A stretch of DNA of 54,386 nt. Source: Syntrophomonadaceae bacterium (GTDB lineage: Bacteria; Bacillota; Dethiobacteria; DTU022; PWGO01). The stretch covers positions 1 to 54,386 of the forward strand of contig PUKQ01000053.1 of the NCBI GenBank assembly GCA_003550565.1, in the 5' to 3' direction. Made by a program: the position numbers and the translations under genes. The notes beneath the pieces were generated by a model. It searched no databases. It was not told where the DNA came from and was given only the letters and a program-made list of their open reading frames with translations. Shown piece after piece: positions 34,430-54,386 of this stretch (position 1 is the first letter of the stretch; the number at the start of each line of letters is the position of its first letter).

Positions 34430-34463
34430 TATGTTTTAAATTGTGATTAAGGGGGGGGAAGCC

Positions 34464-35648: not shown

Positions 35649-35705
35649 AAAAACAATAAGGAAGCATGAAGAGGGTTCTTTTGCTTCTTAGATAGAAAGG
35701 TGGGA

Positions 35706-36464: not shown

Positions 36465-36484
36465 AGAAAGGAAGTGTTCTTCTT

Positions 36485-38102: not shown

Positions 38103-38161
38103 AAAACAAAATAATCGTTTATTTTTTAGCAGCTATAAATGAGAAAGGGGAGTGGATTTTT

Positions 38162-38518: not shown

Positions 38519-39855
38519 TGGATTTTTTGTTTTCCGGCAACCTGCTGGTGGTGGACCTGCAAAAAAAGGAGATAGAAGAAGAAGTTCTTTCCGAGGAATT
38601 TATTTCTCGATATATTGGAGGCGCCCGCGCTAATCTTGCTCTATACGAAAAATACCGGGAAGAAGACCCCATAGTTTTTGGAAGTGGTTTTTTCACCGGA
38701 ACACCCGTGCCGGCCTCCTGCCTGGGGGTAGTAACCGGAAAGAGCCCTCGCACAGGGAAGGTAGGACACAGCCCATTTAATTTATATGCGGGGATGGAAT
38801 TAAAACTTTCGGGTTTTGATTTCATTGTAGTAAAAGGTGTGGCAGCAGAACCGCTTTACCTCTGGGTGCATGATGGGTTGGCTGATCTCCTTGATGCCTC
38901 TGAATTATGGAAAATGGATACCTGGGCACTTACGGACGAATTGCGCAATATCATCGGAGAAGAGATGGTCCAGGTATTGGGTATCGGAGAAGCCGGGATG
39001 AAAGGGTCGCCTGCTGCCCAGATAAACATTAACTACTGGGCCAGCCCCGACCAATTTGGTTTCGGGGCAAAAATGGGAGAAAAGAACTTAAAGGCGCTGG
39101 CCCTTCGGGGGTTAAATATGCTGGATGCCGCTGATCCTCCCGAATTTAATGACCGCTGCCTGGAACTTCATAACCGGATCAAGGGAAGTAAAGTTTTACC
39201 CGGAAAGGGGTTTGCTTCTTTTTCAACACTTTTAGGCGGTGAGGATATCTCCGGTTGGTTGTCCCAGTTGTTACACCGCCACAGTGGCTGTTTTGCCTGC
39301 CACATGAGTTGTAATACCTTTGTCAAGTATAATGAATCCCCCACGGAGATGCGTTCTACAGAAGTCACGGAACCGGGAATACTATTTACGGGTTTATCTT
39401 ATTTGCAGAAGCTTAAAAAGGGAGGATTTACTATAGAAGAATGCGGCCGGATCCTGGAGCAAGTTTCTCGGCTGGGTCTTGATCCGGATGTAGCTGCTGA
39501 TGCCCTTGTGGGTGAGGGGGTTTCCGATTCAAAAGGGGCAAAAAAGGTTTTACAGGAATTAATTTCAGCCGGGGAAGTTAAGTCAGGGGGGTGGATGTCG
39601 GAAGAGGCTGCAGAAGCAAATGACCAAAATATTTTTAGCTCATGGCCTCCCTTTAAAGCAATTGGTGAGGGGATAGAGAAAGAATGGATGCAAATAAACG
39701 CACTGGCCTATACTTGCGGTATTTGCCCTGTTTTTATGTTGACGGTGCCTTTTGTAGATGCCGCGGCGCTCGCCCATTTAATGGAGCCGGGCGCGGAAAT
39801 GGAAATGACCGGTGAAGCTTTGTTAGAAATCACGCAAGAAATCTTAGACCATTAG
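38518..39855 (+). CDS. shortened AOR-family protein (AOR N-domain plus reduced cofactor domains)
   Basis: 445 aa, against 611 for the upstream AOR. Clear AOR N-terminal domain (YIGGARANLALY..DP.VFGSGFFTGTPVP..GKSPRTG..FDFIVVKG..LYLWV). Keeps CFACHMSC (CxxCxxxC) and LGLD. About 165 aa are missing. Confidence 0.7.
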   Translation: MDFLFSGNLLVVDLQKKEIEEEVLSEEFISRYIGGARANLALYEKYREEDPIVFGSGFFTGTPVPASCLGVVTGKSPRTGKVGHSPFNLYAGMELKLSGFDFIVVKGVAAEPLYLWVHDGLADLLDASELWKMDTWALTDELRNIIGEEMVQVLGIGEAGMKGSPAAQININYWASPDQFGFGAKMGEKNLKALALRGLNMLDAADPPEFNDRCLELHNRIKGSKVLPGKGFASFSTLLGGEDISGWLSQLLHRHSGCFACHMSCNTFVKYNESPTEMRSTEVTEPGILFTGLSYLQKLKKGGFTIEECGRILEQVSRLGLDPDVAADALVGEGVSDSKGAKKVLQELISAGEVKSGGWMSEEAAEANDQNIFSSWPPFKAIGEGIEKEWMQINALAYTCGICPVFMLTVPFVDAAALAHLMEPGAEMEMTGEALLEITQEILDH

Positions 39856-40005
39856 CAAAAAAAACCTGGTGAAGCGCATTAAGATGTAAGTGACTTAGGG
39901 ATAAAAAAATAAGGGCATTGCCTGACAGGTCAAATTGCCCCTGGTTCATTTCAATTATGGGTAATATGTATGATTTTGTATTTACTTTGCAGGAAGGTGA
40001 AGGGT

Positions 40006-41256
40006 TTGGAATCTGAAGAAATAACGGCGGGGATTTATACAGGGGAAGGCGCCTCTCACTCATGGACATGGTTTGTAGAAGTCCTGGACCCAATGGAAGG
40101 CGTAAAAAAAGTTTATTTGGATGAAGCTGATGTTAGCCATGAATCCCTGGCAAAATTGGATATATTCCTCATGGGGGGCGGGGATGTATATGGTATGGCT
40201 TTAGCATTGGGGAAAAAAGGCGCGCATGCCCTGGAAAATTTCGTGGAGAACGGTGGAATATTTCTGGGTTCCTGCGCTGGGGCTTACCTGGTAATGAGCG
40301 GGGTTAATTTGCCGCCCTATGATCCTTTTTGCTTGATTGATGCCGGCATGGTAAATTACGCCATTTCTCCGCCAATTTTACCGGGAATTTTGCCTAAGTA
40401 TTTGGTGCCTTACGGAAAAGGGTATGTTTTCTATCCCGCATATGGCCCCGTGGAGTTGGAAATGATAGGAAAGCCACTTTTGTCGAACAGGGAAAAAATG
40501 GTGGCCCCCCTTTATGGCGGTCCGGTTATTGATCCCGGGGAAGGCGCGCAGCCATTGGGATATTATGGAGGTAGGCAAAAAGGGTGTATAGCTCTGGCAG
40601 ATGAGGCCTATCTGGAGGAAACTTTTAACGGTGGCTGTGCCGCGGCCTGGGCCCAAAAAGGCGAAGGAAAAGTGTTTTTGTTTGGTCCCCACCTTGAATG
40701 TCCGGGTTTTCCGGGTGGAAATGATGCAATTAGAAAGGTGGTAGGATTGGCAAAAGGGGAGCGGATGAATTTAACAGCAAGCGAAGGTTTAATGCCCACT
40801 AAAGAAGAAAAAAGGGAAAATAGGCGAGGCAGATCTTCATGTGTGGGCTTAAAATCCCATCGTTATTATAAATTTAACAGTGAACGGAAAAAAAAACAGT
40901 TGCAGTCTATAAAAAGAGAATTGTCTAATGCCCGTATTGTAGCCTTTGGTTTGGAAAAGATGCCGGTGAGCTGGAATGTGGGTACCAAGGTGTGGGAGCC
41001 GGAAAAAATCCGCTTGTTTGTGGAATTTTGCTGGTGTCGTATTGAGCGTTTGGAAAAGGCGGTTGCTGCTGAAAAAGGAAATGGCACGGAGGAAGAGGAA
41101 TTAGAAAAGTTGGTGGAAAGCGTTGTCCGCACGAGAGAAATGATCCGGGACCTAAAAAAAAGACTTGATCAAGGGACGGAAACTACGGATTTGGCCATGC
41201 ATTTATTCCGCCACTTGAAACGCCAGACGGTAATGCTTTTGGAAACAAGCGGTTGA
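40006..41256 (+). CDS. class-I glutamine-amidotransferase-like (BPL_N-type) domain protein with an unknown basic/helical C-terminal half
   Basis: GIYTGEGASH..FLMGGGD..GGIFLGSCAGAYL resembles the GATase1-like nucleophile elbow. The start is uncertain: TTG 40006 behind AGGAAGG, against ATG 39970 with no SD. Confidence 0.5.
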   Translation: MESEEITAGIYTGEGASHSWTWFVEVLDPMEGVKKVYLDEADVSHESLAKLDIFLMGGGDVYGMALALGKKGAHALENFVENGGIFLGSCAGAYLVMSGVNLPPYDPFCLIDAGMVNYAISPPILPGILPKYLVPYGKGYVFYPAYGPVELEMIGKPLLSNREKMVAPLYGGPVIDPGEGAQPLGYYGGRQKGCIALADEAYLEETFNGGCAAAWAQKGEGKVFLFGPHLECPGFPGGNDAIRKVVGLAKGERMNLTASEGLMPTKEEKRENRRGRSSCVGLKSHRYYKFNSERKKKQLQSIKRELSNARIVAFGLEKMPVSWNVGTKVWEPEKIRLFVEFCWCRIERLEKAVAAEKGNGTEEEELEKLVESVVRTREMIRDLKKRLDQGTETTDLAMHLFRHLKRQTVMLLETSG

Positions 41257-41287
41257 GCATAGGATATGAATGTGAGGTGAATAAAAA

Positions 41288-43318
41288 TTGAAGAATAATA
41301 CCGGCGTATATATTTGCCACTGCGGCTCTAACATAGCCTCCACTGTGGACTGTACAAAACTGGCGGAATATGCCGGAAGTCTGCCCCACGTAAAAGTAGT
41401 GCGGGAATATAGTTATATGTGTTCAGATCCCGGGCAGGAACTTATAAATAAAGATATCAGGGAGCTAGGGGTTGACAGGGTAGTTATAGCTGCGTGTTCT
41501 CCACGCTTGCACGAAAACACCTTTCGCAGATTACTTCATAAGGCGGGTATCAACAGATATTTGCTGGAGATGGCCAATATTAGAGAGCAGTGCTCGTGGG
41601 TACATCAGAAAAAAGAAGAAGCTACTTCGAAAGCCAGGCAGTTGCTTTCTTCTGCTTTGAAAAGAGTAATGCTGCAAGAGGAATTAGAAACTCTTAAGGT
41701 GTCTGTAACCCCGGCAGTAATGGTTATTGGGGCCGGAATTGCCGGTATTCAAGCTTCACTAACTATATCCAGGGCAGGTTACCCCGTTTACCTGGTGGAG
41801 AAAGAACCTTCTATCGGAGGCCATATGGCCCAGCTTGATAAAACATTTCCTACTCTTGATTGTTCGGCTTGTATTCTCACTCCCAAAATGGTGGAGCTTG
41901 CCCAGCAGGAGAATGTTCATCTTCTTACCTGCGCCGAAGTGGAAAAGGTAGAGGGTTACGTGGGCAATTTTAAGGCCCGGGTAAAACAGCATCCCCGTTA
42001 TGTAGATCAGGATGTTTGTGCCGGCTGTGGTAGCTGCATGGAAGCTTGCGCTGTCCAAAAAATACCTGCCGAATTTGATGAGGGAATGGGGATGCGTTCG
42101 GCTGCTTATATCCCCTTTCCCCAAGCCGTACCACTCAAATCTACCATAGATTCGCAACATTGCCTTGTATTTAAAGACGGTAAATGTTACCAGAAATGTG
42201 AAGAAATTTATGGTCCTTCCGTGCGAAAGCGTTTTTTGCGCCGTGCTCAACAACGTAGGGAAAGGCCGAAGTGTGTAGAAGCCTGTGAAGCCGGAGCCAT
42301 TGATTTTGAGCAGGAGGAAAAAATCTTGGAACTGGAGGTAGGGGCAATTATCGTAGCTACAGGTTATGATCTCTTTGATGCCCGGGATATGCCCCAGTAC
42401 GGTTATGGAAAATATGAAAATGTTTATACGGGAATGCAGTTTGAACGTATGCTAAATGCTTCCGGCCCCACCGGCGGAGAAATTCTCAAAAGTGATGGTG
42501 AGCCACCGGAATCCATAGCTTTTATTCATTGTGTGGGCAGCCGAGATGAAAACCACAATTTTTATTGTTCCCGTGTTTGCTGTATGTATAATATGAAACA
42601 TGCGTACCAGGCGAAAGAAAAAACCGGGGCCAGGGTTTACGAATTTTATATAGACCTTATGGCTTTTGGAAAGGGGTACCAGGATTTTTACCGGCGTGTA
42701 AGGGAAAAGGACGTGATTTTTACCCGGGGTAAATGTGCGGAAGTAATGGAAGTAGATGATAAATTGAAAGTGTTTGCGGAAGATACTCTTATGGGAAGGC
42801 CTCTGGAGGTAGAGGTGGATATGGTGGTGCTGGGGACGGGAGTGGTGCCGCGGCAAGAGGCATCGTCTATTGCCGGCGTGACAGGGATTTCGCAGGGCAC
42901 GGATGGTTTTTTCCAGGAAGCGCACCCTAAATTACGGCCCATAGAAACACTTGCCGATGGTATTTTTATTAGTGGTTGCTGCCATGGCCCAAAAGATATC
43001 CCTGACACTGTTGTTCAGGCATCATCGGGAGCAGCTGAGGCGCTTTCCCTTATTTCAAGAGGAGAATTGGAAGTAGAAGCTTTAACTGCAGCAGTTAATT
43101 ATGATTTATGCCGTGGCTGTGGCTTTTGTGTGGAAGCATGTGCTTATAATGCCGTTACTATCCATGAAGAAACCGGTAAGGCTACAGTGAATGAGGTGAT
43201 TTGCAAAGGGTGTGGGACTTGTGTTGTGGCATGCTTAACTGGAGCTGTAGATCAGTATAATTTCACTGATGATATAATTCTGGCTCAGATTGAAGGGGTT
43301 TTAAAGCAAAGTAAATAG
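41288..43318 (+). CDS. HdrA-like FAD/Fe-S oxidoreductase (heterodisulfide reductase subunit A family)
   Basis: 676 aa. N-terminal GVYICHCGSNIA, FAD motif VMVIGAGIAGIQASL, TLDCSACILTPKM, several CxxCxxCxxxC ferredoxin motifs, CSRVCCMY. Confidence 0.85.
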   Translation: MKNNTGVYICHCGSNIASTVDCTKLAEYAGSLPHVKVVREYSYMCSDPGQELINKDIRELGVDRVVIAACSPRLHENTFRRLLHKAGINRYLLEMANIREQCSWVHQKKEEATSKARQLLSSALKRVMLQEELETLKVSVTPAVMVIGAGIAGIQASLTISRAGYPVYLVEKEPSIGGHMAQLDKTFPTLDCSACILTPKMVELAQQENVHLLTCAEVEKVEGYVGNFKARVKQHPRYVDQDVCAGCGSCMEACAVQKIPAEFDEGMGMRSAAYIPFPQAVPLKSTIDSQHCLVFKDGKCYQKCEEIYGPSVRKRFLRRAQQRRERPKCVEACEAGAIDFEQEEKILELEVGAIIVATGYDLFDARDMPQYGYGKYENVYTGMQFERMLNASGPTGGEILKSDGEPPESIAFIHCVGSRDENHNFYCSRVCCMYNMKHAYQAKEKTGARVYEFYIDLMAFGKGYQDFYRRVREKDVIFTRGKCAEVMEVDDKLKVFAEDTLMGRPLEVEVDMVVLGTGVVPRQEASSIAGVTGISQGTDGFFQEAHPKLRPIETLADGIFISGCCHGPKDIPDTVVQASSGAAEALSLISRGELEVEALTAAVNYDLCRGCGFCVEACAYNAVTIHEETGKATVNEVICKGCGTCVVACLTGAVDQYNFTDDIILAQIEGVLKQSK

Positions 43319-43333
43319 TTTCGCATGAAGAAG

Positions 43334-44527
43334 CTATATTTGTGCAAACTGGGCAAAAACCTGCAGGTATTCAGTTGCCACGTTGCTCCAGAGCATTTGA
43401 CGGCTGTAGCGGTAAGCATTATTCCTTAATTCGTAACGTAGCTCGTTATCTTCTAAAAGTAACAGCAATTCCCTGGCGATGGCTTTATTATCGCGGAAAG
43501 GAACCAGTCGGCCGTGATTATTGCTCAGCATTTCTGCGGCATAATGATAGGGAGTAGATATTATTGCTTTTCCGCAGCCCATGGCATAAGCAAGAGCTCC
43601 CGAAGCAGTGCGATCTTCATTTAAATAATTTGTTATGAAAATATCAGTGGCCAGCAGGTAACCGATTAATTCCTGCAGGGACACGAACTCGTCGTGGAAA
43701 AAAACATTGTCATTAAGCCCCAAATCATCTACCAACTGCATGAGGGATTGGCGGTATTCTTCTCCATGATATTTCCTTATGACGGGGTGAGTTTTGCCCA
43801 CTACGAGAAATGCGGCTTTGGGAAAATATTTGGTTACCTCTGCCATGGCCTCTATTACATATTCAATTCCTTTTTTTGGGTCCAGTAATCCAAAATTTAA
43901 GATAACCGGACGACCTTCCTTGCCGATGTTTGGTTTGTAATGAGAAGGATCGATAAATGGTTTTTCATGAATGCCGTGGTGGATAAATAAACCTTTGTCT
44001 GCGGGAATATCATAAGAATCCTGCAAAATTTCCCGGGCTTTTTCGGCCATTACGACTACATAGTTTGAGCGGGCGCTGATTTCTTGAATTATTTCTTTCT
44101 GAATGGGGTTGGGATTGTTTAATACAGTGTGTAAGGTCGATACCACAGGTTTTTTTAGTTTATTGAGCAGGTTTATAATGTAATATCCTTCTTCTCCGCC
44201 AAAAAGATTAAACTCATGCTGCAAAGAAACTATATCCTGAGAGGAAGCGTTAATAAATTCAGCAGCCTCGTAATAGTCGTTAAGAGAGTGATCTTTGATT
44301 ACAAAAGTAGTTTCTGAAGGGTAATTATTAATGGGTTCTTCAATATCATCCACAGCTATTACTTGTAATGAATTATTGGTTACTTCTTCTCTATTATATT
44401 GCTTGGCCAGGCTTGATAATAAGTCTTGCGAAAACGTGGCAATACCGCATCTGCGAGGGGGATAACTGGATATAAAAGTTACTTTGGGGGTTTCTTGTAA
44501 ATCTATTTTAAACATACCTTTCATCAC
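43334..44527 (-). CDS. GT4-family (group 1) glycosyltransferase
   Basis: 397 aa. N-terminal FISSYPPRRCGIATFSQDL and the C-terminal sugar-donor region (ASGALAYAMGCGKAIISTP) are typical of GT-B/GT4 enzymes. Convergent with hdrA-like, 15 bp apart. Confidence 0.85.
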   Translation of the reverse strand: MMKGMFKIDLQETPKVTFISSYPPRRCGIATFSQDLLSSLAKQYNREEVTNNSLQVIAVDDIEEPINNYPSETTFVIKDHSLNDYYEAAEFINASSQDIVSLQHEFNLFGGEEGYYIINLLNKLKKPVVSTLHTVLNNPNPIQKEIIQEISARSNYVVVMAEKAREILQDSYDIPADKGLFIHHGIHEKPFIDPSHYKPNIGKEGRPVILNFGLLDPKKGIEYVIEAMAEVTKYFPKAAFLVVGKTHPVIRKYHGEEYRQSLMQLVDDLGLNDNVFFHDEFVSLQELIGYLLATDIFITNYLNEDRTASGALAYAMGCGKAIISTPYHYAAEMLSNNHGRLVPFRDNKAIARELLLLLEDNELRYELRNNAYRYSRQMLWSNVATEYLQVFAQFAQI

Positions 44528-45083
44528 CTCCTTTACTTGAAAACTTATGATGCATAAGTATAAAAAGGAAGATTAGCAATATATTATTGAACATTTGAAT
44601 ATAATTTTTTGGTTTTTCTACAGTTATTGGACGGTTTTTTGCGATAGCCTAAGAACGGTAGCAATGACACCAGGTTGTTTGATAAATTACCGAGTTTTCT
44701 GGCAAAACAAAAAAGGTTAATTTTGGAAGACTTTATGATGAGAATACTTTGTGTTTTGTTTTACTGAGATATATGCGGTGATTTTTAAATATTGATTAAA
44801 ATTTTAATCATACTTTTCTTTAAATATTTCGACAATCTTTATTGAAAATCCTTCTTAAATAAAAAAGTTTTTTACAATATGAAGGTTAGGGTAAAATAAA
44901 AACCGGTTATTATCGAGTTTGCCAAATTAAAGTAAAATATATTGCTTAGGTGGAAGGAAATTTTATAAGGTAGAGTGAATATTACCTTATAGAATGTTTT
45001 TAATTTTATAACTACTCGCGCTGAGAAAAGACCTGGCTAAAGCAGGTTATATCTGAGTAGTTACCAAAAATGAGGAGGTTATT

Positions 45084-46325
45084 ATGGCTACCCAAAAATT
45101 AATTCCTTTGCCTTTGGAAAATATGGATGAAACAGATATTTCTCTGGCGCATAGTTTGCAAAAATGGGCGGAAACCGAAGTTATTAACCGGAGATTAGAA
45201 TACAGAGAAGATTATACAAACTTGCTATTACCTGCTATGCATAAGTTATTAGTGGATATTGAGATGCAGAAGATGCTTTGGCCGGAGAAATATGGGGGAG
45301 TGGAACATAACTCCCCGGAAGTAGCTTTTACGCTGGCCCATGCCCTGGAACAAATTGGCCGCGCGGATACGGGCATCGGGTTTATTTGTGCTTCTACTTA
45401 TGCTCTGTGCAGTACTTTTGCCCTCCAACCCACTATGAACGATGAACTGTGTCGGGAATTTGCTCCTCAGTTTTGTGAAGGTAATGCCCCTGTTTTAGGT
45501 TCTCTGATTGTTCCCGCATATGGCAGCGAGGAAAGTGATTCTGCTACGGCATTCCGGGGAAAATACATGCAGGCCAACGCGCGAAAGGAAGGCAATGAAT
45601 GGATAATCAGTGGCAAGGAAATACGCCCCCTAAATTCGGGAGTTGATGCTTCTTTATATGGGGCTTTTTGTTTTTTAGAGGATGAACAGGAGCCGGCATT
45701 TTTTATTATTCCCGCTCATTTACCCGGCATCAAAAGGGGAGATAATTTTATTAAAACTGGCCTGGCTGCCAGTAGAAATTGCATTCTGGATCTGGATGAA
45801 GTGCGCCTACCTTTAAACAACCTTGTTTTTCGGGGAGAAGCCCCTTACCGGAGGATGATGTCCTGGCTTTACATGGGAATGAGCGCAGTAACTGTAGGTT
45901 CACTTTTTGCTGTTTACGAAATAATAAAGGACTGGGGAGATACCAGGGTTATAAAAGGAAAAGGAAGTATTTTTAAGGAAAACCCTCTTACAGCTTCACT
46001 GATGGCGGAAGCAAGCAACGAGATATTGCTAAGCCGGCTTCTAACTCATCAGGCATCTCAGATGTTAGCTAATCCGGGTGCTTACGAAACCGGGGAGGAT
46101 GAAAGGTTGTACATTTATGCACTGAGTATTACCAACCATGTTAGCAGTGCTGCTGAAAAGGCCATTAACCAGGTTATGGAATTAATGGGGTCGGCGGGGT
46201 ATGCCACCGAATGGAACCTCGAGCGTTACTGGCGGGACGTTAAAAATCTGCAGCTTTACCTGGGCAACTGGGAATTAAATAAAATGGATTTGGCCCGCTA
46301 CTTTTACCAGTGCAAATCCTTGTGA
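45084..46325 (+). CDS. acyl-CoA dehydrogenase-family protein lacking the canonical catalytic Glu
   Basis: 413 aa, ACAD fold pattern. The C-terminal GSAGYATEWNLERYWRDVKNLQLYLGNWEL aligns residue-for-residue with MCAD [30 protein letters not shown], placing Leu at the Glu376 position. Confidence 0.8.
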   Translation: MATQKLIPLPLENMDETDISLAHSLQKWAETEVINRRLEYREDYTNLLLPAMHKLLVDIEMQKMLWPEKYGGVEHNSPEVAFTLAHALEQIGRADTGIGFICASTYALCSTFALQPTMNDELCREFAPQFCEGNAPVLGSLIVPAYGSEESDSATAFRGKYMQANARKEGNEWIISGKEIRPLNSGVDASLYGAFCFLEDEQEPAFFIIPAHLPGIKRGDNFIKTGLAASRNCILDLDEVRLPLNNLVFRGEAPYRRMMSWLYMGMSAVTVGSLFAVYEIIKDWGDTRVIKGKGSIFKENPLTASLMAEASNEILLSRLLTHQASQMLANPGAYETGEDERLYIYALSITNHVSSAAEKAINQVMELMGSAGYATEWNLERYWRDVKNLQLYLGNWELNKMDLARYFYQCKSL

Positions 46326-46433
46326 GCAAGCAGCCCGTAATAATATTTGCTTTTTCTTTTTCTGAAAAACTTGGGAGAATAAATAGAACTCAGTTATTTT
46401 AGTTTAAATAATATATTGGGGAGGATTATAAAT

Positions 46434-47702
46434 ATGCACACTATTGATGATTTTACCAGACCCAGGGAGTATCTTTCACCGCTGGATGAATACATGGGCA
46501 AAATAGTAAGAGATTGGGCAGAAAAAGAAGTAATTCCTTTTCGTCGAAATTATGATGAAGATTGGAAAGAACATAATATTATCGAACCTGCTTTTGACAA
46601 ATTAATGGGCGAGCTGGGAATGCAGCGGGTTCTATTTCCTGAAGACTTGGGAGGGTGGGGATTGGGCCATTCCCACTACATTGGTTCGGCTTCCTTCCGT
46701 ATGTTTGAAGAAGTGGCGCGAGCGGATTCTGCTATAGCCGTTGCTTTTGGAGTCGTTTTTTGGCCTCTCATTATGATCTGCAATAAACCGCATGTTAACC
46801 GCCGACTTTGCGAGGAATTTTCACCCCTTTTTTGTCAGACAGACAAGGCAGTATTTGCTGCTAATGCCATGACTGAACCCCAGGGTGGCGCGGACATAGA
46901 AAACCTGGACATCGTTAAGGGAACTACTATTGAAACCACGGCAATACTTGAAGGCGATGAGTGGGTTATAAACGGGCACAAGCTTTGGCCTACAAACAGC
47001 GGAGGCATAGCGGATCTATTTGGGGTGGTATGCACCACTAATCCCGGTTCTGACGATGTGAATGATTTTGCCTTTATTTTTGTTCCCGCAGACACCCCCG
47101 GTGTTACCCAGGGTGGCCCTTATCAAAAGGCGGGAATGGCTGCGGATAAAAACGGAGACATCTGGTTCGAAAATGTAAGGGTTCCTGCCTTTTATCGCGC
47201 CTGCGGCCCCGGAGATGATTACAAGTATTTTAAAGAAGTTATCTCCTTCGGCAACCTAGGCAGTATCTCGTTTGTGAGCGGAGCCATGCTTAATGTATAC
47301 GAAATTTTGCGGGAATTTGTGGATACATATTTTTTCAAAGGAAAGCCTCTAAAAGAACATGATGCGGTGGCAGGGGTTCTGGCGGATTTAGCAAAAGACA
47401 TTGAAATCATCCGGATTATAGGTTACCAGTACGCCAGGATGATTGATCGGCCGGACATTTATGGAGATCGCTGGAGCGACGAGATTGTGGCCAAGGGGCG
47501 GGCCTATAAATATTTTGCCTGTGACCGGGCCGTGGAAGATCTGGGTAAAGCTATGAACTTGATGGAATCATACGGTAGTGAACGCTGCTGGGATATTGAA
47601 AAACACTGGAGAGATTTAAAAATTGTTCAACTGTGGATGGGTGGTAAACAGCTTTGCCAAATGGAGACGGCACGCCTATTTTTCGACTGCCAAACTCTAT
47701 AA
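46434..47702 (+). CDS. acyl-CoA dehydrogenase-family protein lacking the canonical catalytic Glu (paralogue of the upstream gene)
   Basis: About 422 aa counted from the ATG behind GGGGAGG (the ORF is open from 46416). AMTEPQGGADI, WPTNSGG. ..WDIEKHWRDLKIVQLWMGGKQL places Met at the Glu376 position. Confidence 0.8.
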   Translation: MHTIDDFTRPREYLSPLDEYMGKIVRDWAEKEVIPFRRNYDEDWKEHNIIEPAFDKLMGELGMQRVLFPEDLGGWGLGHSHYIGSASFRMFEEVARADSAIAVAFGVVFWPLIMICNKPHVNRRLCEEFSPLFCQTDKAVFAANAMTEPQGGADIENLDIVKGTTIETTAILEGDEWVINGHKLWPTNSGGIADLFGVVCTTNPGSDDVNDFAFIFVPADTPGVTQGGPYQKAGMAADKNGDIWFENVRVPAFYRACGPGDDYKYFKEVISFGNLGSISFVSGAMLNVYEILREFVDTYFFKGKPLKEHDAVAGVLADLAKDIEIIRIIGYQYARMIDRPDIYGDRWSDEIVAKGRAYKYFACDRAVEDLGKAMNLMESYGSERCWDIEKHWRDLKIVQLWMGGKQLCQMETARLFFDCQTL

Positions 47703-47739
47703 ATAATTATGGAAATAATATGGAAAGGAAAGAAAAGTT

Positions 47740-48411
47740 ATGAGCGAATTAAATTATCAACCCGGCTCTATTGATGCTGCCGATCGTGTAATGCGGGAAC
47801 TTTTGCGGACCCCCCGTTTCAAAAACGGCGTTAAAGTATTGCTTAATTCTCTGGATCCGAAATCGGCGCCCGGTTTGGTGAGAACCCTTATGTGGGAAGA
47901 TGCAGAGTTGTTTTTAGATGTGGTGGGAGTCGCTCCCGATGTTTTGAATGCACTGCTTTTGGGCAGTAGGGAAGCCATTGTCCAGGCAGAAAATTATCCG
48001 AAGCCGGTGTTGGCTGATTTCATTTCTCAAATGTTAGATAAATTTGATGCGGAAGAACTTGGTTCTACCATAGGGAAGGCAGCAGCCCTTTTACAGGATG
48101 TACAGAATGTCCCTGGTGACCCCGTGCAGAAATCCTTTGAAGATTTTAAAAGCCGGGTAAACAAAGGGTTGACTGCTGAAGGGCAAGAAGACACGGCTTT
48201 TTTAATGCTTTCTGTTTTGCAGCCATTACTTCGCCAACAGATGCGTCGGCTAGCTTTAGAAGCTGCCCGGGAGGGTTCGGAAACTCAGAAAGTGATTCAA
48301 GGCCTTTCTCAGGCTTTCATGGAAGAAGTAAAAGAAAATCCGGATTTTCTTAATTATGTCCTCAGGCCATTTTTTGATTCTTTGCCGGGGACTGATAGCG
48401 AAAACGGCTGA
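47740..48411 (+). CDS. hypothetical helical protein (shares an N-terminal motif with the next ORF)
   Basis: 223-aa ORF with a GGAAAGGAAAG SD. The motif RELLRTPRFK..GLVRTLMWEDAELF parallels KELLRTPAFK..MARTILWEDAAFSF in 48442-50250. No domain recognised. Confidence 0.6.
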   Translation: MSELNYQPGSIDAADRVMRELLRTPRFKNGVKVLLNSLDPKSAPGLVRTLMWEDAELFLDVVGVAPDVLNALLLGSREAIVQAENYPKPVLADFISQMLDKFDAEELGSTIGKAAALLQDVQNVPGDPVQKSFEDFKSRVNKGLTAEGQEDTAFLMLSVLQPLLRQQMRRLALEAAREGSETQKVIQGLSQAFMEEVKENPDFLNYVLRPFFDSLPGTDSENG

Positions 48412-48441
48412 AAAATAGTGTAAGAGGAGGAAAGGGAAAAT

Positions 48442-50250
48442 ATGGAAGACGATTTCAAAAACAAGGATTTTAAAAACGAAAATAATGAAGAGTCGCCGCA
48501 AACCGGAGCTGCCCCCCGCATTATAAAAGAACTCCTCCGTACACCGGCATTTAAAGATTTAATTACTTTAAGCCAGGGGGAATATGAGAAAGAAGATCCC
48601 CGGGAGATGGCGAGAACAATTTTATGGGAAGATGCCGCTTTTTCCTTCGGCTTATTGGGCAATCTGCCTTCCGGTATAAATTTTTGGATTAACTTTTTAG
48701 ATGAGCTGGGGATACAGCTTCAAAATATGCCCCCTCACCTCCTGCGAGAATATATTTCTCATATGGGGGATAATTTGGATAGAGAAGCGCTTGTAAATTT
48801 GCCCCGGTCTTATGCGCCTCTGGTGGAAAAGCTTTTATGGGAGGATCCGGAAAATCAACGCCATCTGCGCGCAGGAGCCAAAGAAACCCTCAACAACCTG
48901 ATGCGTCTTTCTGCGCGATCAATGGACAAACTTTCTACCCTGTATGAACAGGAAGAAAAGGCCGAAGGAAGAGCGGATGGCTTTGATGGTGGGGAAAGTG
49001 AAAATGACATTCTTGGAGAAGAGAAAGAACTGGATCCTCAAGCTTTGGGGGAATTGGTTAATTCCTTGTTTAAGTGGATGGGGGAAGCAGCGGGCAAAGA
49101 TCCGGAGACCATCCGAGCTGCTCAGGAAAAAAAGAAAGCTTTTTTAGAGGAAACCTTAAAGCACACCGATTTTGGTTTATTGCGCAGCGCCATTACCAGG
49201 CGGGCAGAAGCCAATTACCCTGTTTATGAGGCAGTGGGCGGTGCTCTTGTGAGTGACCCTGTTATTTTTGCCAACCTGGTTAATGTTTTACCTCCGTTGC
49301 TCAATAATTTGCTCAAGGGAGTTTCCAGCACTATTTCTCAAGTTGATTTTCCTCCCGAGATCCTGGCCAGTGCTGTTTTCAACCTGCTTGATGACCTGGA
49401 AGCTGCGGAAATAGCCGGAATCGCCAATGGATTAAGCAGTTTAATTAACCAACTTCATGAAGGAAACATGGTCCTTGGAAAAAACGAACCACGCTTTAAA
49501 GGTGTGTTGGAAAATTTCCTGGAAAAAGTACTTCAAGACTTTGATCAAAATGAAGTTGCCGGGGCGCTACAGGCTGTTATGGAAGATATGGAGGTTGTCC
49601 TCATAGTAACGGCAGATACTTTGGCGGAAAGGCCAGACTTGCTGGAAGATGTACTTCCGGCCGTCTATGCCGGTTTTAATGCTAATTTGAGAGGCCTTAT
49701 TTATTTTGTGCACACTTTGGATGATCTTCCCCCCGAGACTTATCAGCAATTGGGGCGGGAATTGGAAGAAAAAGGTGTCATTAAAGAGCTTGTCAGCCTT
49801 GTTAACGCGTTAATAGGTTTCGCCAACAGGATGATGGCGGAAAATCCTCATTTGTTGCAGCATGTAATTGAATCTCTTTATAATGACCTGGACAAAGATG
49901 AAATACAGAAACTTACCCGGCAGATTTATCAGCAGGGATATGCTTTTATGGTCAATGAGGAATTAGATGATTATTTACGTCCTGACTATATCGGACGAAT
50001 GACCAATTCACTCCTGGTTTCATATAATCGCAAATTAGAAAAAGAACCTCACAAAGTGCAGCAGAACCTGGAACTTTACTTAAAAAATCTTGATCAAGAA
50101 GAATTGTCCCGGGCAGTAACCAATAGTTCGAAACAATTCCAGAATGTTATAGCAAATAATCCCCAATTAGCTCAGGGGTTAATAAGTATTTTTTATTCCG
50201 TTTTCAAGGGAGCTGTAATAGGAGCTTTTAGATCGGGAAAACGTAAGTAA
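48442..50250 (+). CDS. hypothetical large helical protein (paralogous N-terminus to 47740-48411)
   Basis: 602-aa ORF, Leu/Glu-rich with no Cys motifs. GAGGAGGAAAGGG SD. No family recognised. Confidence 0.6.
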   Translation: MEDDFKNKDFKNENNEESPQTGAAPRIIKELLRTPAFKDLITLSQGEYEKEDPREMARTILWEDAAFSFGLLGNLPSGINFWINFLDELGIQLQNMPPHLLREYISHMGDNLDREALVNLPRSYAPLVEKLLWEDPENQRHLRAGAKETLNNLMRLSARSMDKLSTLYEQEEKAEGRADGFDGGESENDILGEEKELDPQALGELVNSLFKWMGEAAGKDPETIRAAQEKKKAFLEETLKHTDFGLLRSAITRRAEANYPVYEAVGGALVSDPVIFANLVNVLPPLLNNLLKGVSSTISQVDFPPEILASAVFNLLDDLEAAEIAGIANGLSSLINQLHEGNMVLGKNEPRFKGVLENFLEKVLQDFDQNEVAGALQAVMEDMEVVLIVTADTLAERPDLLEDVLPAVYAGFNANLRGLIYFVHTLDDLPPETYQQLGRELEEKGVIKELVSLVNALIGFANRMMAENPHLLQHVIESLYNDLDKDEIQKLTRQIYQQGYAFMVNEELDDYLRPDYIGRMTNSLLVSYNRKLEKEPHKVQQNLELYLKNLDQEELSRAVTNSSKQFQNVIANNPQLAQGLISIFYSVFKGAVIGAFRSGKRK

Positions 50251-50305
50251 GCATATTTCCTTATTCAAGCTCGGGGCAAAGCAAAAGAGGGAGGCGAAAT
50301 AAAAC

Positions 50306-51415
50306 ATGGATGAGTTGAACGAACTGGTAAGCGTCATAGAAAATACTTATGTGAGGAAAGCTCGCGAAGAAGGACAAAAAATTGTGGGTTATGCGTGCCT
50401 ATCTACTCCCCGCGAAATATTTGATGCTGCAGGAATATTTCCTTACCGAATCAAAGCCTTATCTAATACGGAAACAGAAATGGCCGATGCACATCTTTCG
50501 CGTTTTAATTGTGGATTTTGCCGTTCGTGCCTGCAACTGGGATTAGATGGTACTTACGATTTTTTGGACGGTTTGGTGGAAACTAACGGGTGTGATCACC
50601 TGCGAGGAATGTTTGAGAACTGGCAGTATGTGACTCCCCGTTCTTTTTTTCACTATCTTAGGGTGCCCCACCTTACCGATGAGGATTCTATGGAGTGGTT
50701 TAGGGGCGAGTTGGAAATGCTTGTGGAAGCTCTGGAAAAACACTTTGATGTGATTATTAATGAAGAAAATTTGCAGGCTTCCATTAAGACGCAGGATCAA
50801 ATAACAGAAAAGTTAAGGCATATTTATGAGAGCAGGTGGGAAAAGGAGATAAAGGTGCCGGGTAGTGAAATAATGGCTTTGACAGTGGCGGAAGGTTCTA
50901 TGCCTCCTGCTGATTACAGCCGTTTACTGGACGAATATTTAGAGGTTATCAGGAAAAGAAAGCCGCTGAAGACCCGGGCCAGGATTTTTATGGGTGGGGC
51001 GGCTACCGATGAAGTGGAACTTATCACTGCCCTGGAAGAGCTGGGTGGAATAATGGTAGCGGACTCATTTTGTTTCGGAGGGCGGCTTTTCCGGCGGAAA
51101 TCATCTGCGGATGATACTCTCCTTAGGCTGGTGGAAATGTATTTAAACAATTTATTGTGCCCGCGTATGTTTATGGATTATGAGAGCCGCAAATCTTTTA
51201 TCAAAGATATGATCCAAAAATCCGGGGCAGAAGGGGCGGTGCTTTTTCATAACAAGTTTTGTGATCTGCACGGTATTGAAAATGTTCAAATAAGACTGGA
51301 TTTGGAAAAAGAGGGTATGCCGGTCCTGCTTTTAGAAAAGGAATACGGCGCGGAGGCTGATATAGGACGCTTGAAAACCAGAGTACAGGCTTTTTTGGAA
51401 AGGCTAAAGAGGTGA
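50306..51415 (+). CDS. benzoyl-CoA reductase / 2-hydroxyacyl-CoA dehydratase family subunit (BcrC/BadD/HgdB-like)
   Basis: 369 aa. N-terminal GQKIVGYACLSTPREIFDAAGIFPYRI and conserved Cys (FNCGFCRSC, NGCDH, KFCDLH) fit the HGD-D family. Confidence 0.8.
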   Translation: MDELNELVSVIENTYVRKAREEGQKIVGYACLSTPREIFDAAGIFPYRIKALSNTETEMADAHLSRFNCGFCRSCLQLGLDGTYDFLDGLVETNGCDHLRGMFENWQYVTPRSFFHYLRVPHLTDEDSMEWFRGELEMLVEALEKHFDVIINEENLQASIKTQDQITEKLRHIYESRWEKEIKVPGSEIMALTVAEGSMPPADYSRLLDEYLEVIRKRKPLKTRARIFMGGAATDEVELITALEELGGIMVADSFCFGGRLFRRKSSADDTLLRLVEMYLNNLLCPRMFMDYESRKSFIKDMIQKSGAEGAVLFHNKFCDLHGIENVQIRLDLEKEGMPVLLLEKEYGAEADIGRLKTRVQAFLERLKR

Positions 51416-51420
51416 ATATT

Positions 51421-52824
51421 ATGGAAAACACTAAAATGCTTCCCAATGAAGGTTTGTTCGATCGGGTTTACGGGCTGTTTGAAATTTTAAAGAAGCTTCC
51501 CCCTCAGTTAAGTGAAGACGAATTAGAGGGGTTGTTAAAAGTACTTCCCCCGGATAGCGCCAATAGTATGCAAGCCTTATTAAAACCTTCTATCCAACAG
51601 GCGTCCCTTACATTCTTAAGTATGCTTACTACAGCGTTAGAGGAAACCAGGAATGCCAAGAAAAATGGGAAAAAAGTGATTCTGGTGCCTTTTAATTTTC
51701 CCCCGGAAATTGTCCATGCTTTTGACAATCTTGCACCGATTACCACCGAAGTTTTAACAACCCTGGGGGTAGTAGCCTTGGAAGGTCAGGGCGAAAGATA
51801 CTGGGAATATGCCATGGGTTTGGGTTTGCCCGATCATCTCTGTTCTGCCAATACCATTGACCTGGGATCAACGCTTACGGGCATTGACTTTGATCCTGAC
51901 GCTATTATCTCGGGTTGTGTGGGTAGTTGTGATGTCAATTCTAAAACCCATGAATTTGTGTCTGCTTTGTTGGGTCTGCCCCAGATTCCTTTGGAAAAAC
52001 CAACGGATGATACCGCCCGCGGTTTTGAATTTTTTAAGAAGAATTATTATAAAATGATATCACAGTTGGAAAAATTAGCCGGGGAAGAGCTTAAAGAAGA
52101 GAATTTAAGGGTTGTGGCCGAAAAAGCTAACCGCTGCACCGAGCTATACTATGATATTTGGGAAATGAAAAAACAGGTACCCTGTCCTGTGCCGGGCATA
52201 TTTTCCCTTTTTGTATGTGCTTCCCGTTTTTCCATGTGGGGGCGGGATGAAGCTATTAGGACTTTGGAAGATTGCCTGCAAGTGGCAATACGCAATTATG
52301 AAAGTGAAGAATACCGGGATCGCGGAGAGGTGGCGCGGGTAGTCTGGATATACCTCAGTTATTATTTTGATTTCGTAAATTTTTATGACTGGATGGAAAA
52401 TAAAAGAATAAGCAATATGGGTGATGCACTGCAACTGGCATTCCCGGAACCGCTGGATCTTTCCACCAGGGAATCCATATTGGACGGAATGATTAAAAGT
52501 GCCTGGAATAATGTCATGACCAGGCAGATGGGGGCATATTCCATGTCCGCTCAGTGGGTGGAAGATATCATCCATGTGATTAAAGAATTTGATGTTAACG
52601 GGGCAATTTATTGTGGTCACCATTCATGCAAACAGACCTGGAGTATTTTTTCTATTGCCCGCAGTGAAGTGCTCAAAAGGACCGGTGTTCCTACCTTGGG
52701 CTTGCAAGGGGATTCTTGGATGAAAAACATGACTCCCATAGGTGTTATCCAGGAGGAGATTGAACAGTTTGTAAACAACGTGGTAATCAAAAAACGAGGC
52801 CGCCGCAGGCGCAAAAAGTCTTAA
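51421..52824 (+). CDS. benzoyl-CoA reductase / 2-hydroxyacyl-CoA dehydratase family subunit (BcrB/HgdA-like) with a poly-basic C-terminal tail
   Basis: KKNGKKVILVPFNFPPEIVHAFDNLAP.., CGHHSCKQ. The tail reads VIKKRGRRRRKKS. The ORF is open from GTG 51412 (overlapping the upstream stop), but ATG 51421 has the AAGAGGTG SD. Confidence 0.75.
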   Translation: MENTKMLPNEGLFDRVYGLFEILKKLPPQLSEDELEGLLKVLPPDSANSMQALLKPSIQQASLTFLSMLTTALEETRNAKKNGKKVILVPFNFPPEIVHAFDNLAPITTEVLTTLGVVALEGQGERYWEYAMGLGLPDHLCSANTIDLGSTLTGIDFDPDAIISGCVGSCDVNSKTHEFVSALLGLPQIPLEKPTDDTARGFEFFKKNYYKMISQLEKLAGEELKEENLRVVAEKANRCTELYYDIWEMKKQVPCPVPGIFSLFVCASRFSMWGRDEAIRTLEDCLQVAIRNYESEEYRDRGEVARVVWIYLSYYFDFVNFYDWMENKRISNMGDALQLAFPEPLDLSTRESILDGMIKSAWNNVMTRQMGAYSMSAQWVEDIIHVIKEFDVNGAIYCGHHSCKQTWSIFSIARSEVLKRTGVPTLGLQGDSWMKNMTPIGVIQEEIEQFVNNVVIKKRGRRRRKKS

Positions 52825-52879
52825 CTGTTTTATGGACGGGTTTATTGACAATAATTATTGATGGAGGTTGATACAGTAA

Positions 52880-53677
52880 ATGTTATACGGAGGAATCGAT
52901 GTAGGTTCATTATCAGCACAGGCGGTAATTATTAAAGACAATGTTATTTATTCCAATTACAGTATGCGGGTGAAGCCAAGGCCGGTAGATTCTGCGGCTA
53001 CAGTTTTAGAGGAAGCGCTAAAAGAAAAGGGCCTTTCTCTAAAAGATCTTGCTTTCTGCGTAAGTACAGGTTATGGACGGGAACAAATCCAGAAAGAAGG
53101 GCTTTCGGGAGAAAACATGAGTGAGATTTCCTGTCACGGCAAGGGCGCTCATTGGGTTTTGCCGCAGGTAAGGACTATAATAGACATTGGGGGGCAGGAT
53201 GCAAAGGTAATCAAAGTAGATGAAAACGGTGAACTGGTTAACTTTGTGATGAACGATAAATGCGCTGCCGGAACCGGACGTTTTCTTGATGTAATGAGTA
53301 AAACACTGGGGGTTTCCGTGGATGAACTGGCTCCTTTGTCTTTAAAATCACGCCAGACAGTGGAAATGAGCAGCCGGTGCAGTATTTTCTGTGAAACGGA
53401 GGTACATCATTATCTGCAGAGAGGAGCCAGCCTTGCGGATGTGGCTGCCGGCATAAATTATGCCATGGCTGAACGTGTAATGGCCCTGGTGCGCCGGGTG
53501 GGAATAGAAAAGGAGATAACCATGAGCGGTGGAGTTGCTAAAAACTCGGCGGTGCGAAAAGAATTGGAGAAATTAATGCAAACCCGGATGGTAACTTATA
53601 AAGTGGATACGCAAATTGTAGGGGCACTGGGAGCAGCTTTGTTTGCGCGGAAGTTGGGGGAGGTGAAGTCCTTATGA
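52880..53677 (+). CDS. BcrA/BcrD/HgdC-type ATPase (CoA-substrate-specific enzyme activase / electron-activating subunit)
   Basis: 265 aa. ASKHA-fold motifs GIDVGSLSAQAVII, DIGGQDAKVI, NDKCAAGTGRFLD, RCSIFCETE, MSGGVAKN. Confidence 0.9.
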   Translation: MLYGGIDVGSLSAQAVIIKDNVIYSNYSMRVKPRPVDSAATVLEEALKEKGLSLKDLAFCVSTGYGREQIQKEGLSGENMSEISCHGKGAHWVLPQVRTIIDIGGQDAKVIKVDENGELVNFVMNDKCAAGTGRFLDVMSKTLGVSVDELAPLSLKSRQTVEMSSRCSIFCETEVHHYLQRGASLADVAAGINYAMAERVMALVRRVGIEKEITMSGGVAKNSAVRKELEKLMQTRMVTYKVDTQIVGALGAALFARKLGEVKSL

Positions 53678-54386
53678 TATCTTTAGGTATAGATGTGGGC
53701 AGCCTTTTTACTAAAGCGGTACTTTTAGATGATGACCAAATGCTGGCTTCGGCAATGCGGGAAACTACCGGAAATATTTCCGGAGAGATGGAGGAATTTA
53801 TAAATGAAGTGGCTTCCCGGGGAGGAGTTTCCAGGCAGAATATAGAGGTCTGCGTAAGTGCCGGTCAGGGAGAAGATCTGGTGGAGCAAGCCGATTTTAG
53901 TGAAGATACAGTGGTTTGTATCGCTATGGCCAGCCGTCATCTGTTGCCTGAAAGCGAATTGGCCGTGGATGTGGGTGGACAAAGCATTACTACTGTTATT
54001 AGTGATACAGAAGGGGAAGTAGCGAACTTTATGCACAATGATAAATGTGCTTCCGGTTCGGGACGGTTTATTGAGGTAATTAGCTCGGCCCTGGGTGTTA
54101 ATATGAATGATATTGATGAAATTGCGGAGAAAGCGCAGAAAACTATACCGGTGAGCACTCAATGCGCTGTATTTGCGGAAAGTGAAATTGTTTCTTATGT
54201 AAACCAGGGTGAGGCTGTACCCGATTTAATAGCGGCGGTATGCGAAGCCGTAGCCCGGATGGTGGTTTCGCAGGCGCTCCGCTTTGGAAATATTAAAAAT
54301 TATACCGTGACCGGCGGAGTGGGGCGCATTAGCGCTGTTGTAAATGTCCTGGAAAAACGCCTTCAGGGCAATTATTATTCTTTTCC
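53674..54386 (+). CDS. second BcrA/BcrD/HgdC-type ATPase, 3'-truncated by the window end (absent from the ORF track)
   Basis: ATG 53674 overlaps the TGA of the upstream gene (ATGA). The frame stays open to the window edge: MISLGIDVGSLFTKAVLL..VDVGGQSITTVI..NDKCASGSGRFIE..TQCAVFAESE..VTGGVGR. Confidence 0.85.
   Translation, partial: MISLGIDVGSLFTKAVLLDDDQMLASAMRETTGNISGEMEEFINEVASRGGVSRQNIEVCVSAGQGEDLVEQADFSEDTVVCIAMASRHLLPESELAVDVGGQSITTVISDTEGEVANFMHNDKCASGSGRFIEVISSALGVNMNDIDEIAEKAQKTIPVSTQCAVFAESEIVSYVNQGEAVPDLIAAVCEAVARMVVSQALRFGNIKNYTVTGGVGRISAVVNVLEKRLQGNYYSF

Follow-up and report, generated by a model that had tools for sequence, protein, structure and literature searches.

Class I benzoyl-CoA reductases carry two distinct ATPase subunits, whereas 2-hydroxyacyl-CoA dehydratases use one homodimeric activator. 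Benzoyl-CoA reductases (BCRs), 2-hydroxyacyl-CoA dehydratases (HADs) and double-cubane cluster proteins (DCCPs) are the three enzyme types described in the BCR/HAD/DCCP family, and the physiological substrate of DCCP is still unknown (PMC7317905, PMC11971306). Here we report the analysis of a gene module at the end of a 54,386-nucleotide (nt) stretch of DNA (the window) from a Syntrophomonadaceae bacterium (assembly GCA_003550565.1, contig PUKQ01000053.1), in which genes for two different ATPases and two HGD-D subunits follow genes for a pair of acyl-CoA dehydrogenase (ACAD)-like proteins and two unannotated helical proteins. We favour, with somewhat better than even confidence, the reading that this module, which comprises ten genes, encodes an uncharacterised reductase system of BCR architecture that would couple ATP hydrolysis stoichiometrically to electron transfer and act on a thioester together with a flavoprotein lacking a catalytic base.

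The module part of the window consists of eight co-directional open reading frames (ORFs) on the plus strand, which follow a 556-base pair (bp) AT-rich spacer; the ORF list and the G+C count agree in this with the first-pass annotation of the window. The genes encode ACAD1 (45084-46325; 413 amino acids (aa); weak Pfam ACAD domains), the ACAD-fold flavoprotein ACAD2 (46434-47702; 422 aa; Pfam ACAD domains likewise weak), two acidic proteins without Cys (47740-48411, 223 aa; 48442-50250, 602 aa), the BzdN-like electron-transfer subunit HGD-D a (50306-51415; 369 aa; Pfam HGD-D, 266 bits), HGD-D b (51421-52824; 467 aa; Pfam HGD-D, 156 bits), the HgdC/HadI-like ASKHA ATPase 1 (52880-53677; 265 aa; BcrAD_BadFG; TIGR00241, 241 bits) and its diverged paralogue ATPase 2 (53674-54386; BcrAD_BadFG), which the window end cuts at residue 237 of 257. 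Pfam and NCBIfam thus uphold the earlier assignment of the last four genes as HGD-D twice and BcrAD_BadFG twice. For ACAD2 (alternative TTG start at 46416) and HGD-D b (alternative GTG start at 51412), the position of the ribosome-binding site and the gene calls on related contigs favour the ATG codons at 46434 (422 aa) and 51421 (467 aa). The junctions within the last four genes measure +5 or −4, +55 and −4 nt, and the start of ATPase 2 overlaps the stop of ATPase 1 (ATGA). With the revised start codons, therefore, only one or two of these junctions overlap, and not three overlapping or nearly overlapping ones as had been described.

The unit extends beyond the window. The 602-aa protein has no exact database match, and a 97%-identical relative was used instead; on the contigs that carry this relative, the eight genes are followed by genes for a 238-aa PF03598 (CdhC) protein and a 248-aa CbiA/ParA-type ATPase. 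Contig PWEW01000122.1 (GCA_003553635.1; locus L027), from the same organism, matches the window over 11.5 kb at 99.89% identity and carries the window's own ATPase 1. Here, the full-length ATPase 2 of 257 aa (L027 10795-11568) is followed by gene 9, encoding a CdhC-like protein that resembles the A2 domain of acetyl-CoA synthase (ACS) (L027 11571-12287), and gene 10, encoding a CooC-like ATPase (L027 12284-13030). In the window's organism, the operon probably ends ahead of an 11/12 sigma-70-like site, TTGATA-16-TATAAT, at L027 13071-13098 (+), between the CooC-like and thioredoxin genes. As judged from this longer contig, the eight genes first described as an operon make up the 5′ four-fifths of a ten-gene operon that is self-contained and that the window end cuts. 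Past the promoter-like site, the thioredoxin gene is followed by aldehyde:ferredoxin oxidoreductase and ThiS-like genes.

The ten-gene order recurs, between unrelated flanks, in at least 15 independent loci. Their hosts are metagenome-assembled genomes (MAGs) of at least three phyla: Bacillota (biogas-reactor Bacillota, Syntrophomonadaceae and Dethiobacteria), Actinomycetota (Ca. Geothermincola, GCA_018824995.1, and an Actinobacteria MAG) and Ca. Lernaellota (Ca. Alcyoniella), with more module loci on unassigned contigs. The nearest named relative (97% protein identity) is labelled Syntrophomonadaceae, many loci come from anaerobic digesters, and the database names of module relatives are all generic or 'hypothetical'. 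A fortuitous juxtaposition of separate functions, namely ACADs, hypothetical proteins and a BCR-like enzyme, could appeal to the gaps of 108, 55 and 55 nt, which could house internal promoters. However, order and content are strictly conserved, and two window junctions are translationally coupled by overlap or near-overlap. Because the gene order is kept across phyla with unrelated flanks, the module is not due to chance, and we find juxtaposition hardly credible.

Conservation differs strongly among the components, as measured by the identity of each to its window orthologue across loci. ACAD2 is the most conserved across phyla (70-84%), followed by ATPase 1 (60-80%), HGD-D b (52-79%), HGD-D a (50-71%), ATPase 2 (46-67%), CooC-like (45-65%), ACAD1 (42-66%) and CdhC-like (36-55%) proteins, with the helical proteins at 24-49% and the 602-aa protein evolving fastest. 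For ACAD2, at least 120 relatives (90%-identity clusters) share 70% or more of their residues with it, and almost all of these are 422 aa long; HGD-D b has 426 relatives, the best 120 of which are all at least 50% identical. The composition varies little among lineages: where the large helical protein has a length of about 490 aa, the 223-aa gene is absent; some lineages encode the large helical protein in two pieces, and some have, in addition, a TetR gene upstream and a second paralogue of HGD-D b. The TetR-family regulator, encoded directly upstream of the module at L024 1437-2060, L029 3260-3904 and L030 1268-2020, is the sole recurrent neighbour, and flanks otherwise vary. The second HGD-D b paralogue, found in L024 and L030, is longer, and the checked copy in L024 lacks the C-G-H-H-x-C motif. 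Two Syntrophomonadaceae MAGs carry pieces of the module. One (L022 7389-11044) has only ACAD1, ACAD2, a helical N-terminal piece and a 33-residue HGD-D b remnant, and the other (L023 4103-5931) has only a truncated ACAD1 and a CdhC-like fragment, which suggests decay or assembly artefacts. In a metagenomic locus (L007 1-4888), a gene for an MTTB-family methyltransferase lies a few kb upstream of the module, with genes resembling a pyrrolysine set (tRNA-synthetase class II, radical SAM, ATP-grasp and PylD domains).

The nature of the core enzyme is indicated by HGD-D a and the ATPases. BzdN binds its [8Fe-9S] cluster through Cys36, Cys73, Cys100, Cys263, Cys293 and Cys327 (PMC11971306), and C31, C69, C96, C256, C285 and C319 of HGD-D a align with these six ligands. 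The spacing is CX37CX26CX159CX28CX33C in HGD-D a and CX36CX26CX162CX29CX33C in BzdN; a seven-Cys motif, CX19CX18-19CX29CX166-170CX32-34CX32C, has been described for DCCP (PMC7317905). All eight Cys residues of HGD-D a, including the six ligands, are invariant in 10 loci, and Arg53, Arg267 and His330 of BzdN are matched as well. Among the profiles of solved structures in the Protein Data Bank (PDB), HGD-D a scores best against BzdN (8s02_B, 135 bits), followed by HadC (114), DCCP (85) and MbdN (65). Its NCBIfam equivalog scores (score/cut-off) are 171/350 for double_cubane, the best, 133/454 for BzdN and 126/421 for BcrC.

Both ATPases match PF01869 and TIGR00241 and contain invariant Cys residues for a bridging cluster (C128 and C167 in ATPase 1; C125 and C164 in ATPase 2). 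ATPase 1 scores 219 bits against HadI, 214 against HgdC and 198 against MbdQ. For ATPase 2, the full-length orthologue from a close relative (L001; 95% identical) scores 133 against HadI, 128 against HgdC, 124 against MbdQ and 110 against MbdP. Equivalog scores again fall short (BzdQ 212 and 111 versus 380; BcrA 163/578; BcrD 120/313), and no subunit passes a curated cut-off of the class I BCR models TIGR03190/03191/03192 and TIGR02259/02261/02263. Two distinct ATPase genes are present in every module locus, and together with the six BzdN-type double-cubane Cys residues they argue for a reductase rather than a dehydratase. The earlier proposal of an ATP-driven low-potential reductase or dehydratase is in this way supported and moved towards its first half.

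HGD-D b would be the catalytic subunit, and here we number residues by the 467-aa form and score invariance over 32 diverse relatives. Its family profile aligns with DCCP (56 bits), HadB (46 bits, over the full length) and BzdO (30 bits), and its equivalog scores are 57/750 for HadB and 20/449 for BzdO. C141, C170 and C403 are invariant and lie opposite the cluster ligands of HadB and DCCP; for C141 and C170 there is a direct alignment with BzdO ligands as well. Invariant Glu110 aligns with HadB Glu55, and the position of HadB Ser37 is occupied by an invariant Phe. In BzdO, Glu65 and His131 form an acid/base pair, and the position of His131 is an invariant Asn in HGD-D b. The family has invariant motifs of its own, G-H-H-x-C-K-Q, with a His-His dyad, at the third ligand and C-D-x-N-x-K-x-H-E at the second. 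C398 was considered as a fourth Cys ligand and rejected, being replaced in 3 of the 32 relatives.

These residues bear on the alternative that the module encodes a 2-hydroxyacyl-CoA dehydratase together with an enoyl-CoA reductase, as does hadIBC-acdB of Clostridioides difficile, with the ATPases activating the dehydratase catalytically and the ACAD pair reducing the enoyl-CoA. The ATPases do score highest against the activators HadI and HgdC, HGD-D b aligns with HadB from end to end, Glu55 included, and ACAD genes adjoin the had genes in known operons. However, there are always two different ATPase genes where a dehydratase has one homodimeric activator. HGD-D a has the six-Cys pattern of BzdN, and by alignment HadC has no Cys opposite C31 and C72 of HGD-D a; HadB Ser37 is replaced by Phe, the HadB and HadC scores (57/750 and 121/700) are low, and the conserved unit contains neither a CoA transferase nor an electron transfer flavoprotein (ETF). 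We regard this alternative as rather unlikely.

A second alternative is a genuine class I (Bzd/Mbd-type) aroyl-CoA reductase, whose alicyclic products the ACADs would process in the manner of cyclohexanecarboxyl-CoA and cyclohex-1-ene-carboxyl-CoA dehydrogenases. It accounts for two HGD-D subunits, two ATPases and BzdN-type double-cubane ligands, for the best NCBIfam match of both ACADs, cyclohexane-1-carbonyl-CoA dehydrogenase, and for the PaaK-like ligase and beta-oxidation-like genes upstream in the window. But every equivalog score lies far under its cut-off, those of the ACADs at 81 and 113 bits versus 650, the similarity of HGD-D b to BzdO is low and its Asn takes the place of His131. 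Moreover, the upstream genes are not kept beside the module elsewhere, genes for a dienoyl-CoA hydratase, dehydrogenase or ring hydrolase are absent, and the ACADs lack any catalytic base, so that we consider an aroyl-CoA reductase distinctly improbable. A place of the four BCR-type subunits inside a characterised clade would have spoken against the earlier proposal, but their NCBIfam scores are far below the cut-offs and their neighbourhood is unlike those of bcr, bzd and had genes.

The two ACAD-like proteins depart from their family at the catalytic site. The canonical base sites, Glu376 of medium-chain acyl-CoA dehydrogenase (MCAD) and Glu254 of isovaleryl-CoA dehydrogenase (IVD), are both altered. 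In HMMER alignments to solved ACADs, the MCAD position (YEGT) is Leu in ACAD1 (YLGN) and Met in ACAD2 (WMGG), as first reported from the sequence, and the helix-G position of IVD and long-chain acyl-CoA dehydrogenase (LCAD), equivalent to MCAD Thr255-Arg256, is Leu-Tyr in ACAD1 and Gly-Asn in ACAD2. An alternative Glu at helix G, for which the first-pass annotation had proposed a check, is thus absent from both proteins, and neither reaches any equivalog cut-off. Across 11 loci, ACAD2 has only Met or Leu at the MCAD-Glu position and never Glu. Known enoyl-CoA-reducing ACADs retain the catalytic Glu, which adds to the case against a dehydratase–reductase pair.

The FAD-binding motifs are divided between the two proteins. 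ACAD2 keeps the invariant flavin-ring motifs T147-E-P and W185-P-T-N; its trans-acting Arg is lost (Tyr), and ESYGS replaces the GG-x-G-Y motif that binds the FAD of the partner. In ACAD1, by alignment to 2dvl and others and in a family alignment with 79 invariant residues, IVPAYGS and IRPLNSG replace TEP and WxTN, and the trans-acting Arg288 (TRVIKG; aligned to the Arg of ERxxFG) and GSAGYA (G-x-x-G-Y) are kept. Such complementary motifs fit the pattern of a heteromer with one FAD, in which ACAD1 is probably the FAD-less partner subunit. One-FAD heterodimers with complementary FAD motifs are known from the ACADs of steroid side-chain degradation, and the analogy with these α2β2 enzymes, drawn at first from gene adjacency, gains from the division of TEP/WPTN and trans Arg/G-x-x-G-Y between ACAD2 and ACAD1. 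ACAD2 is strongly constrained, with 207 of its 422 residues invariant over 11 loci, and its AlphaFold2 (AF2) model (pLDDT 85, pTM 0.88) has as best Foldseek matches isobutyryl-CoA dehydrogenase (IBD), MCAD and short-chain acyl-CoA dehydrogenase (SCAD) (TM 0.78-0.86, 21-24% identity). The invariance of C116, C126 and C134 in the 11 loci prompted the idea of an Fe-S cluster in ACAD2, as in 4-hydroxybutyryl-CoA dehydratase; this idea was dropped, as among 40 broader relatives only C126 and C419 are invariant Cys residues.

The loss of both bases also bears on a third alternative, ATP-driven reverse electron transfer, in which electrons from an acyl-CoA would enter at the ACAD flavin and be lifted by the ATPases to the potential of ferredoxin, in the service of syntrophic fatty-acid oxidisers. 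The Syntrophomonadaceae label of the nearest named relative and the many digester loci agree with it, as does the pairing of a flavoprotein from an acyl-CoA-oxidising family with an ATP-dependent module that energises electrons. But neither ACAD has a base for acyl-CoA oxidation, the open-site cluster and the acid/base residues conserved in HGD-D b would be needless for a pure relay, and lineages labelled Ca. Geothermincolia and Ca. Lernaellota carry the module too. We hold this alternative to be very improbable. What weight is left after the favoured reductase reading and the four alternatives belongs to something else.

The 223-aa and 602-aa proteins have no significant match among Pfam, NCBIfam, PHROGs or PDB profiles. 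They are homologous over about 106 N-terminal residues (35% identity, E = 2e-17, BLASTP). The earlier description of two proteins without a recognisable domain, then, stands after searches in all of these resources and with Foldseek, but not its view that their similarity is confined to an N-terminal motif. The AF2 model of the 602-aa protein is all-helical and of low confidence; its Foldseek search gave noise only, and at a pLDDT of only 57 the model is unfit for fold comparison. A search of 1.84 billion representatives assigned 599 clusters at 50% identity to the helical family (E ≤ 1e-3), and ten proteins, namely eight distant family members and two module neighbours, candidate fusions included, contain no Pfam domain. 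The L001 orthologues of the two proteins have isoelectric points (pI) of about 4.6-4.8, that of the 223-aa protein (92% identical) being 4.55. A membrane anchor in the 602-aa protein was considered and rejected, as no hydrophobic window exceeds a Kyte–Doolittle (KD) value of 1.6 and the C terminus is not conserved. Both paralogues, acidic and helical, probably serve as scaffolds or adaptors. The C terminus of HGD-D b is a polybasic tail, KKRGRRRRKKS (52780-52824, +), in a region where the family consensus is rich in Lys and Arg too, and this tail could dock onto the two helical proteins.

The last two genes of the operon encode proteins related to nickel enzymes and their maturation. The CdhC-like protein aligns to residues 310-489 of ACS, its middle, A2 domain (model positions 310-486), and retains the W-x-R and G-F motifs common to ACS. 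It has an invariant C-terminal CxxCx5C with three Cys residues and stops 20 residues later. The A3 domain of ACS is missing, and so are its fourth cubane Cys and Cys-Gly-Cys nickel site; by alignment, the CxxC of the CdhC-like protein corresponds to the first two A-cluster cubane Cys residues of Carboxydothermus hydrogenoformans ACS. The CooC-like protein has an invariant deviant Walker A motif, GKGGVGKTT, and an invariant nickel-binding CxC motif (G-C-Y-C), and its best PDB match is CooC1 (3kje, 65 bits), with the CxC aligned. Together, the two proteins probably serve a metal centre, which they would mature or carry, or else bind CoA.

We propose, on the model of related enzymes, the following mechanism, in which we infer the formation of a complex, the electron path, the stoichiometric coupling to ATP and the CoA-ester nature of the substrate. 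A heterodimer of the two HgdC-type ATPases would hold a bridging [4Fe-4S] cluster, take an electron from ferredoxin and push it to a very low potential by ATP hydrolysis, with ATP used stoichiometrically as in class I benzoyl-CoA reductase. The electron would pass to the BzdN-type [8Fe-9S] double cubane in HGD-D a and on to a [4Fe-4S] cluster in HGD-D b that is held by three Cys residues and leaves one iron site open; there the substrate, most likely an acyl thioester, would be reduced via a ketyl-type radical. ACAD1 and ACAD2 would form a heteromer with one FAD per pair, held by ACAD2. Since neither has a base for the α-proton, their flavin site should not carry out classical α,β-dehydrogenation; instead, either the same thioester intermediate or the one after it would be bound there for an electron or hydride step or for a non-redox step. 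The whole operon product would act as a single multi-subunit, oxygen-sensitive enzyme system.

Several points weigh against this reading. HGD-D b scores at most 57 bits against any characterised catalytic subunit, and this remote similarity and the Asn in place of BzdO His131 mean that its chemistry may differ from the known types, being neither Birch-type reduction nor 2-hydroxyacyl dehydration. The role assigned to the base-less flavoprotein is speculative. The conserved unit has no gene for a CoA ligase or transferase, a ferredoxin or an ETF, and the assumption of a CoA ester is drawn from family precedent and the ACAD fold only. In addition, every host is a MAG, and no cultured host was seen.

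A bolder version of the proposal, which we consider unlikely, is a new kind of ATP-driven metalloenzyme involving a heterometal installed by the CooC-type protein. In this version, a dedicated CooC-type chaperone and the three-Cys ACS-derived protein would serve to install or carry a heterometal, nickel or another, whose target could be the open-site cluster of HGD-D b next to the His-His dyad, or another subunit, and the base-less flavoprotein would be an integral catalytic partner.

The operon is preceded by the AT-rich spacer (44528-45083; 28% G+C), which separates it from a divergent glycosyltransferase gene (43334-44527, −). A promoter scan of the spacer found no sigma-70-like site of at least 9/12 on the plus strand and two on the minus strand, both facing the glycosyltransferase, and no Rfam RNA element was found in 43000-54386, spacer included. 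Further upstream, a long co-directional run (29916-43318, +) encodes an unusual beta-oxidation-like set: a PaaK-like ligase, two DUF2148 paralogues, an SCP2 protein, an AIR-synthase-related protein, an ACAD, a short-chain dehydrogenase/reductase (SDR), a DUF35/OB-fold protein with an SCP2-type thiolase, a ferredoxin, a 445-aa protein in which only the N-terminal domain of aldehyde:ferredoxin oxidoreductase (AFOR) is present, a BPL_N-like protein and a 676-aa HdrA-like protein. Its 3′ part recurs in the close relative L001, and the run is absent beside the module in other lineages; a functional link of the module to these beta-oxidation-like, AFOR and HdrA-like genes was accordingly rejected. 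The ACAD of the run (34443-35648, +) is full-scoring (Pfam 133, 112 and 84 bits) and has Y-D-L-T at the Y-E-G-T site, with Asp for the catalytic Glu. Elsewhere in the window, there are two pairs of FAD_binding_4 (GlcD-like) and CCG-domain (HdrD-like) genes (10057-12611 and 19224-24596, +), the second split by an aldehyde:ferredoxin oxidoreductase gene with its ferredoxin (20959-23274). A single tRNA-Pro(GGG) gene (4926-5002, −) lies in an AT-rich stretch (3001-5000; 33% G+C), flanked by a BCCT transporter gene and a 201-aa ORF without a Pfam match.

BCR/HAD/DCCP enzymes carry out some of biology's hardest reductions, and the module represents a new, large and strongly constrained branch of them, with partners not previously linked to this family: a base-less flavoprotein pair, two unannotated proteins, an ACS fragment and a nickel-chaperone homologue. 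Taken at face value, the names that automated annotation gives to its genes could inflate estimates of anaerobic aromatic degradation. Identification of the substrate could fill a gap in the reactions known from anaerobic digesters, sediments and hot springs, and the module would offer enzymologists a new double-cubane system. If the heterometal proposal were true, such a system could carry out thioester chemistry beyond that of BCR, HAD and DCCP, for example reduction or C–C/C–S bond chemistry with non-activated acyl-CoAs as substrates, and its uncultured anaerobic hosts are widespread.

No description of this gene combination was found in the literature searched, and its parts invite comparison with several known systems. 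The Bzd/Mbd class I BCRs (PDB 8s02, 9g87/9gai) share with the module two different ASKHA ATPases with cluster Cys residues and the combination of a six-Cys [8Fe-9S] subunit of about 370 aa with a longer subunit that binds its cluster through three Cys residues. The module differs from them in that HGD-D b has its own G-H-H-x-C motif, Asn for His131 and only 30 bits of similarity to BzdO, in falling about two- to threefold or more below the equivalog cut-offs, and in its gene content, in which bzd-type neighbours are absent and base-less ACADs, helical proteins, an ACS fragment and a CooC-type ATPase are always joined. HadBC/HadI and HgdAB/HgdC resemble it in their ATPases, as HadI and HgdC give the highest scores with both ATPases, and in the end-to-end match of HadB to HGD-D b with its three Cys residues and Glu55, but the module has two distinct ATPases and a double-cubane partner subunit and lacks HadB Ser37 and a CoA transferase. 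With DCCP and its reductase DCCP-R (PDB 6eno, 7yyl) it has in common the six cluster Cys residues of HGD-D a, whose best NCBIfam match is double_cubane (171 bits), and DCCP is the best PDB profile match of HGD-D b (56 bits). However, DCCP is a homodimer with a homodimeric reductase, whereas here the core would be heteromeric, with a second HGD-D subunit, and the Cys spacing of HGD-D a is of the BzdN type, with 171 bits amounting to half of the cut-off of 350 (NF040772).

The ACAD pair recalls ChsE1-E2 and ChsE4-E5 (FadE26-27 and FadE28-29), which are likewise adjacent paralogues, one of them without flavin-ring motifs; in these α2β2 enzymes the motif-poor paralogue retains the residues for the partner's FAD, giving one FAD per heterodimer. 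The FAD-bearing subunit of the steroid heteromers retains the catalytic Glu, whereas here it is absent from both subunits, which also have no sequence affinity to those clades, occur in anaerobic hosts and are tied to a BCR-type module. Finally, the last module gene resembles CooC and AcsF in its deviant Walker A and CxC motifs, with CooC1 as best solved relative, and the ninth is homologous to the A2 domain of AcsB/CdhC, including the first Cys residues of the A-cluster motif, but neither carbon monoxide dehydrogenase (CODH) nor ACS is encoded adjacent to the module. Thus, by sequence comparison, the component families are already known, and the clade of the catalytic subunit and the fixed partnership of the ten genes appear to be new.

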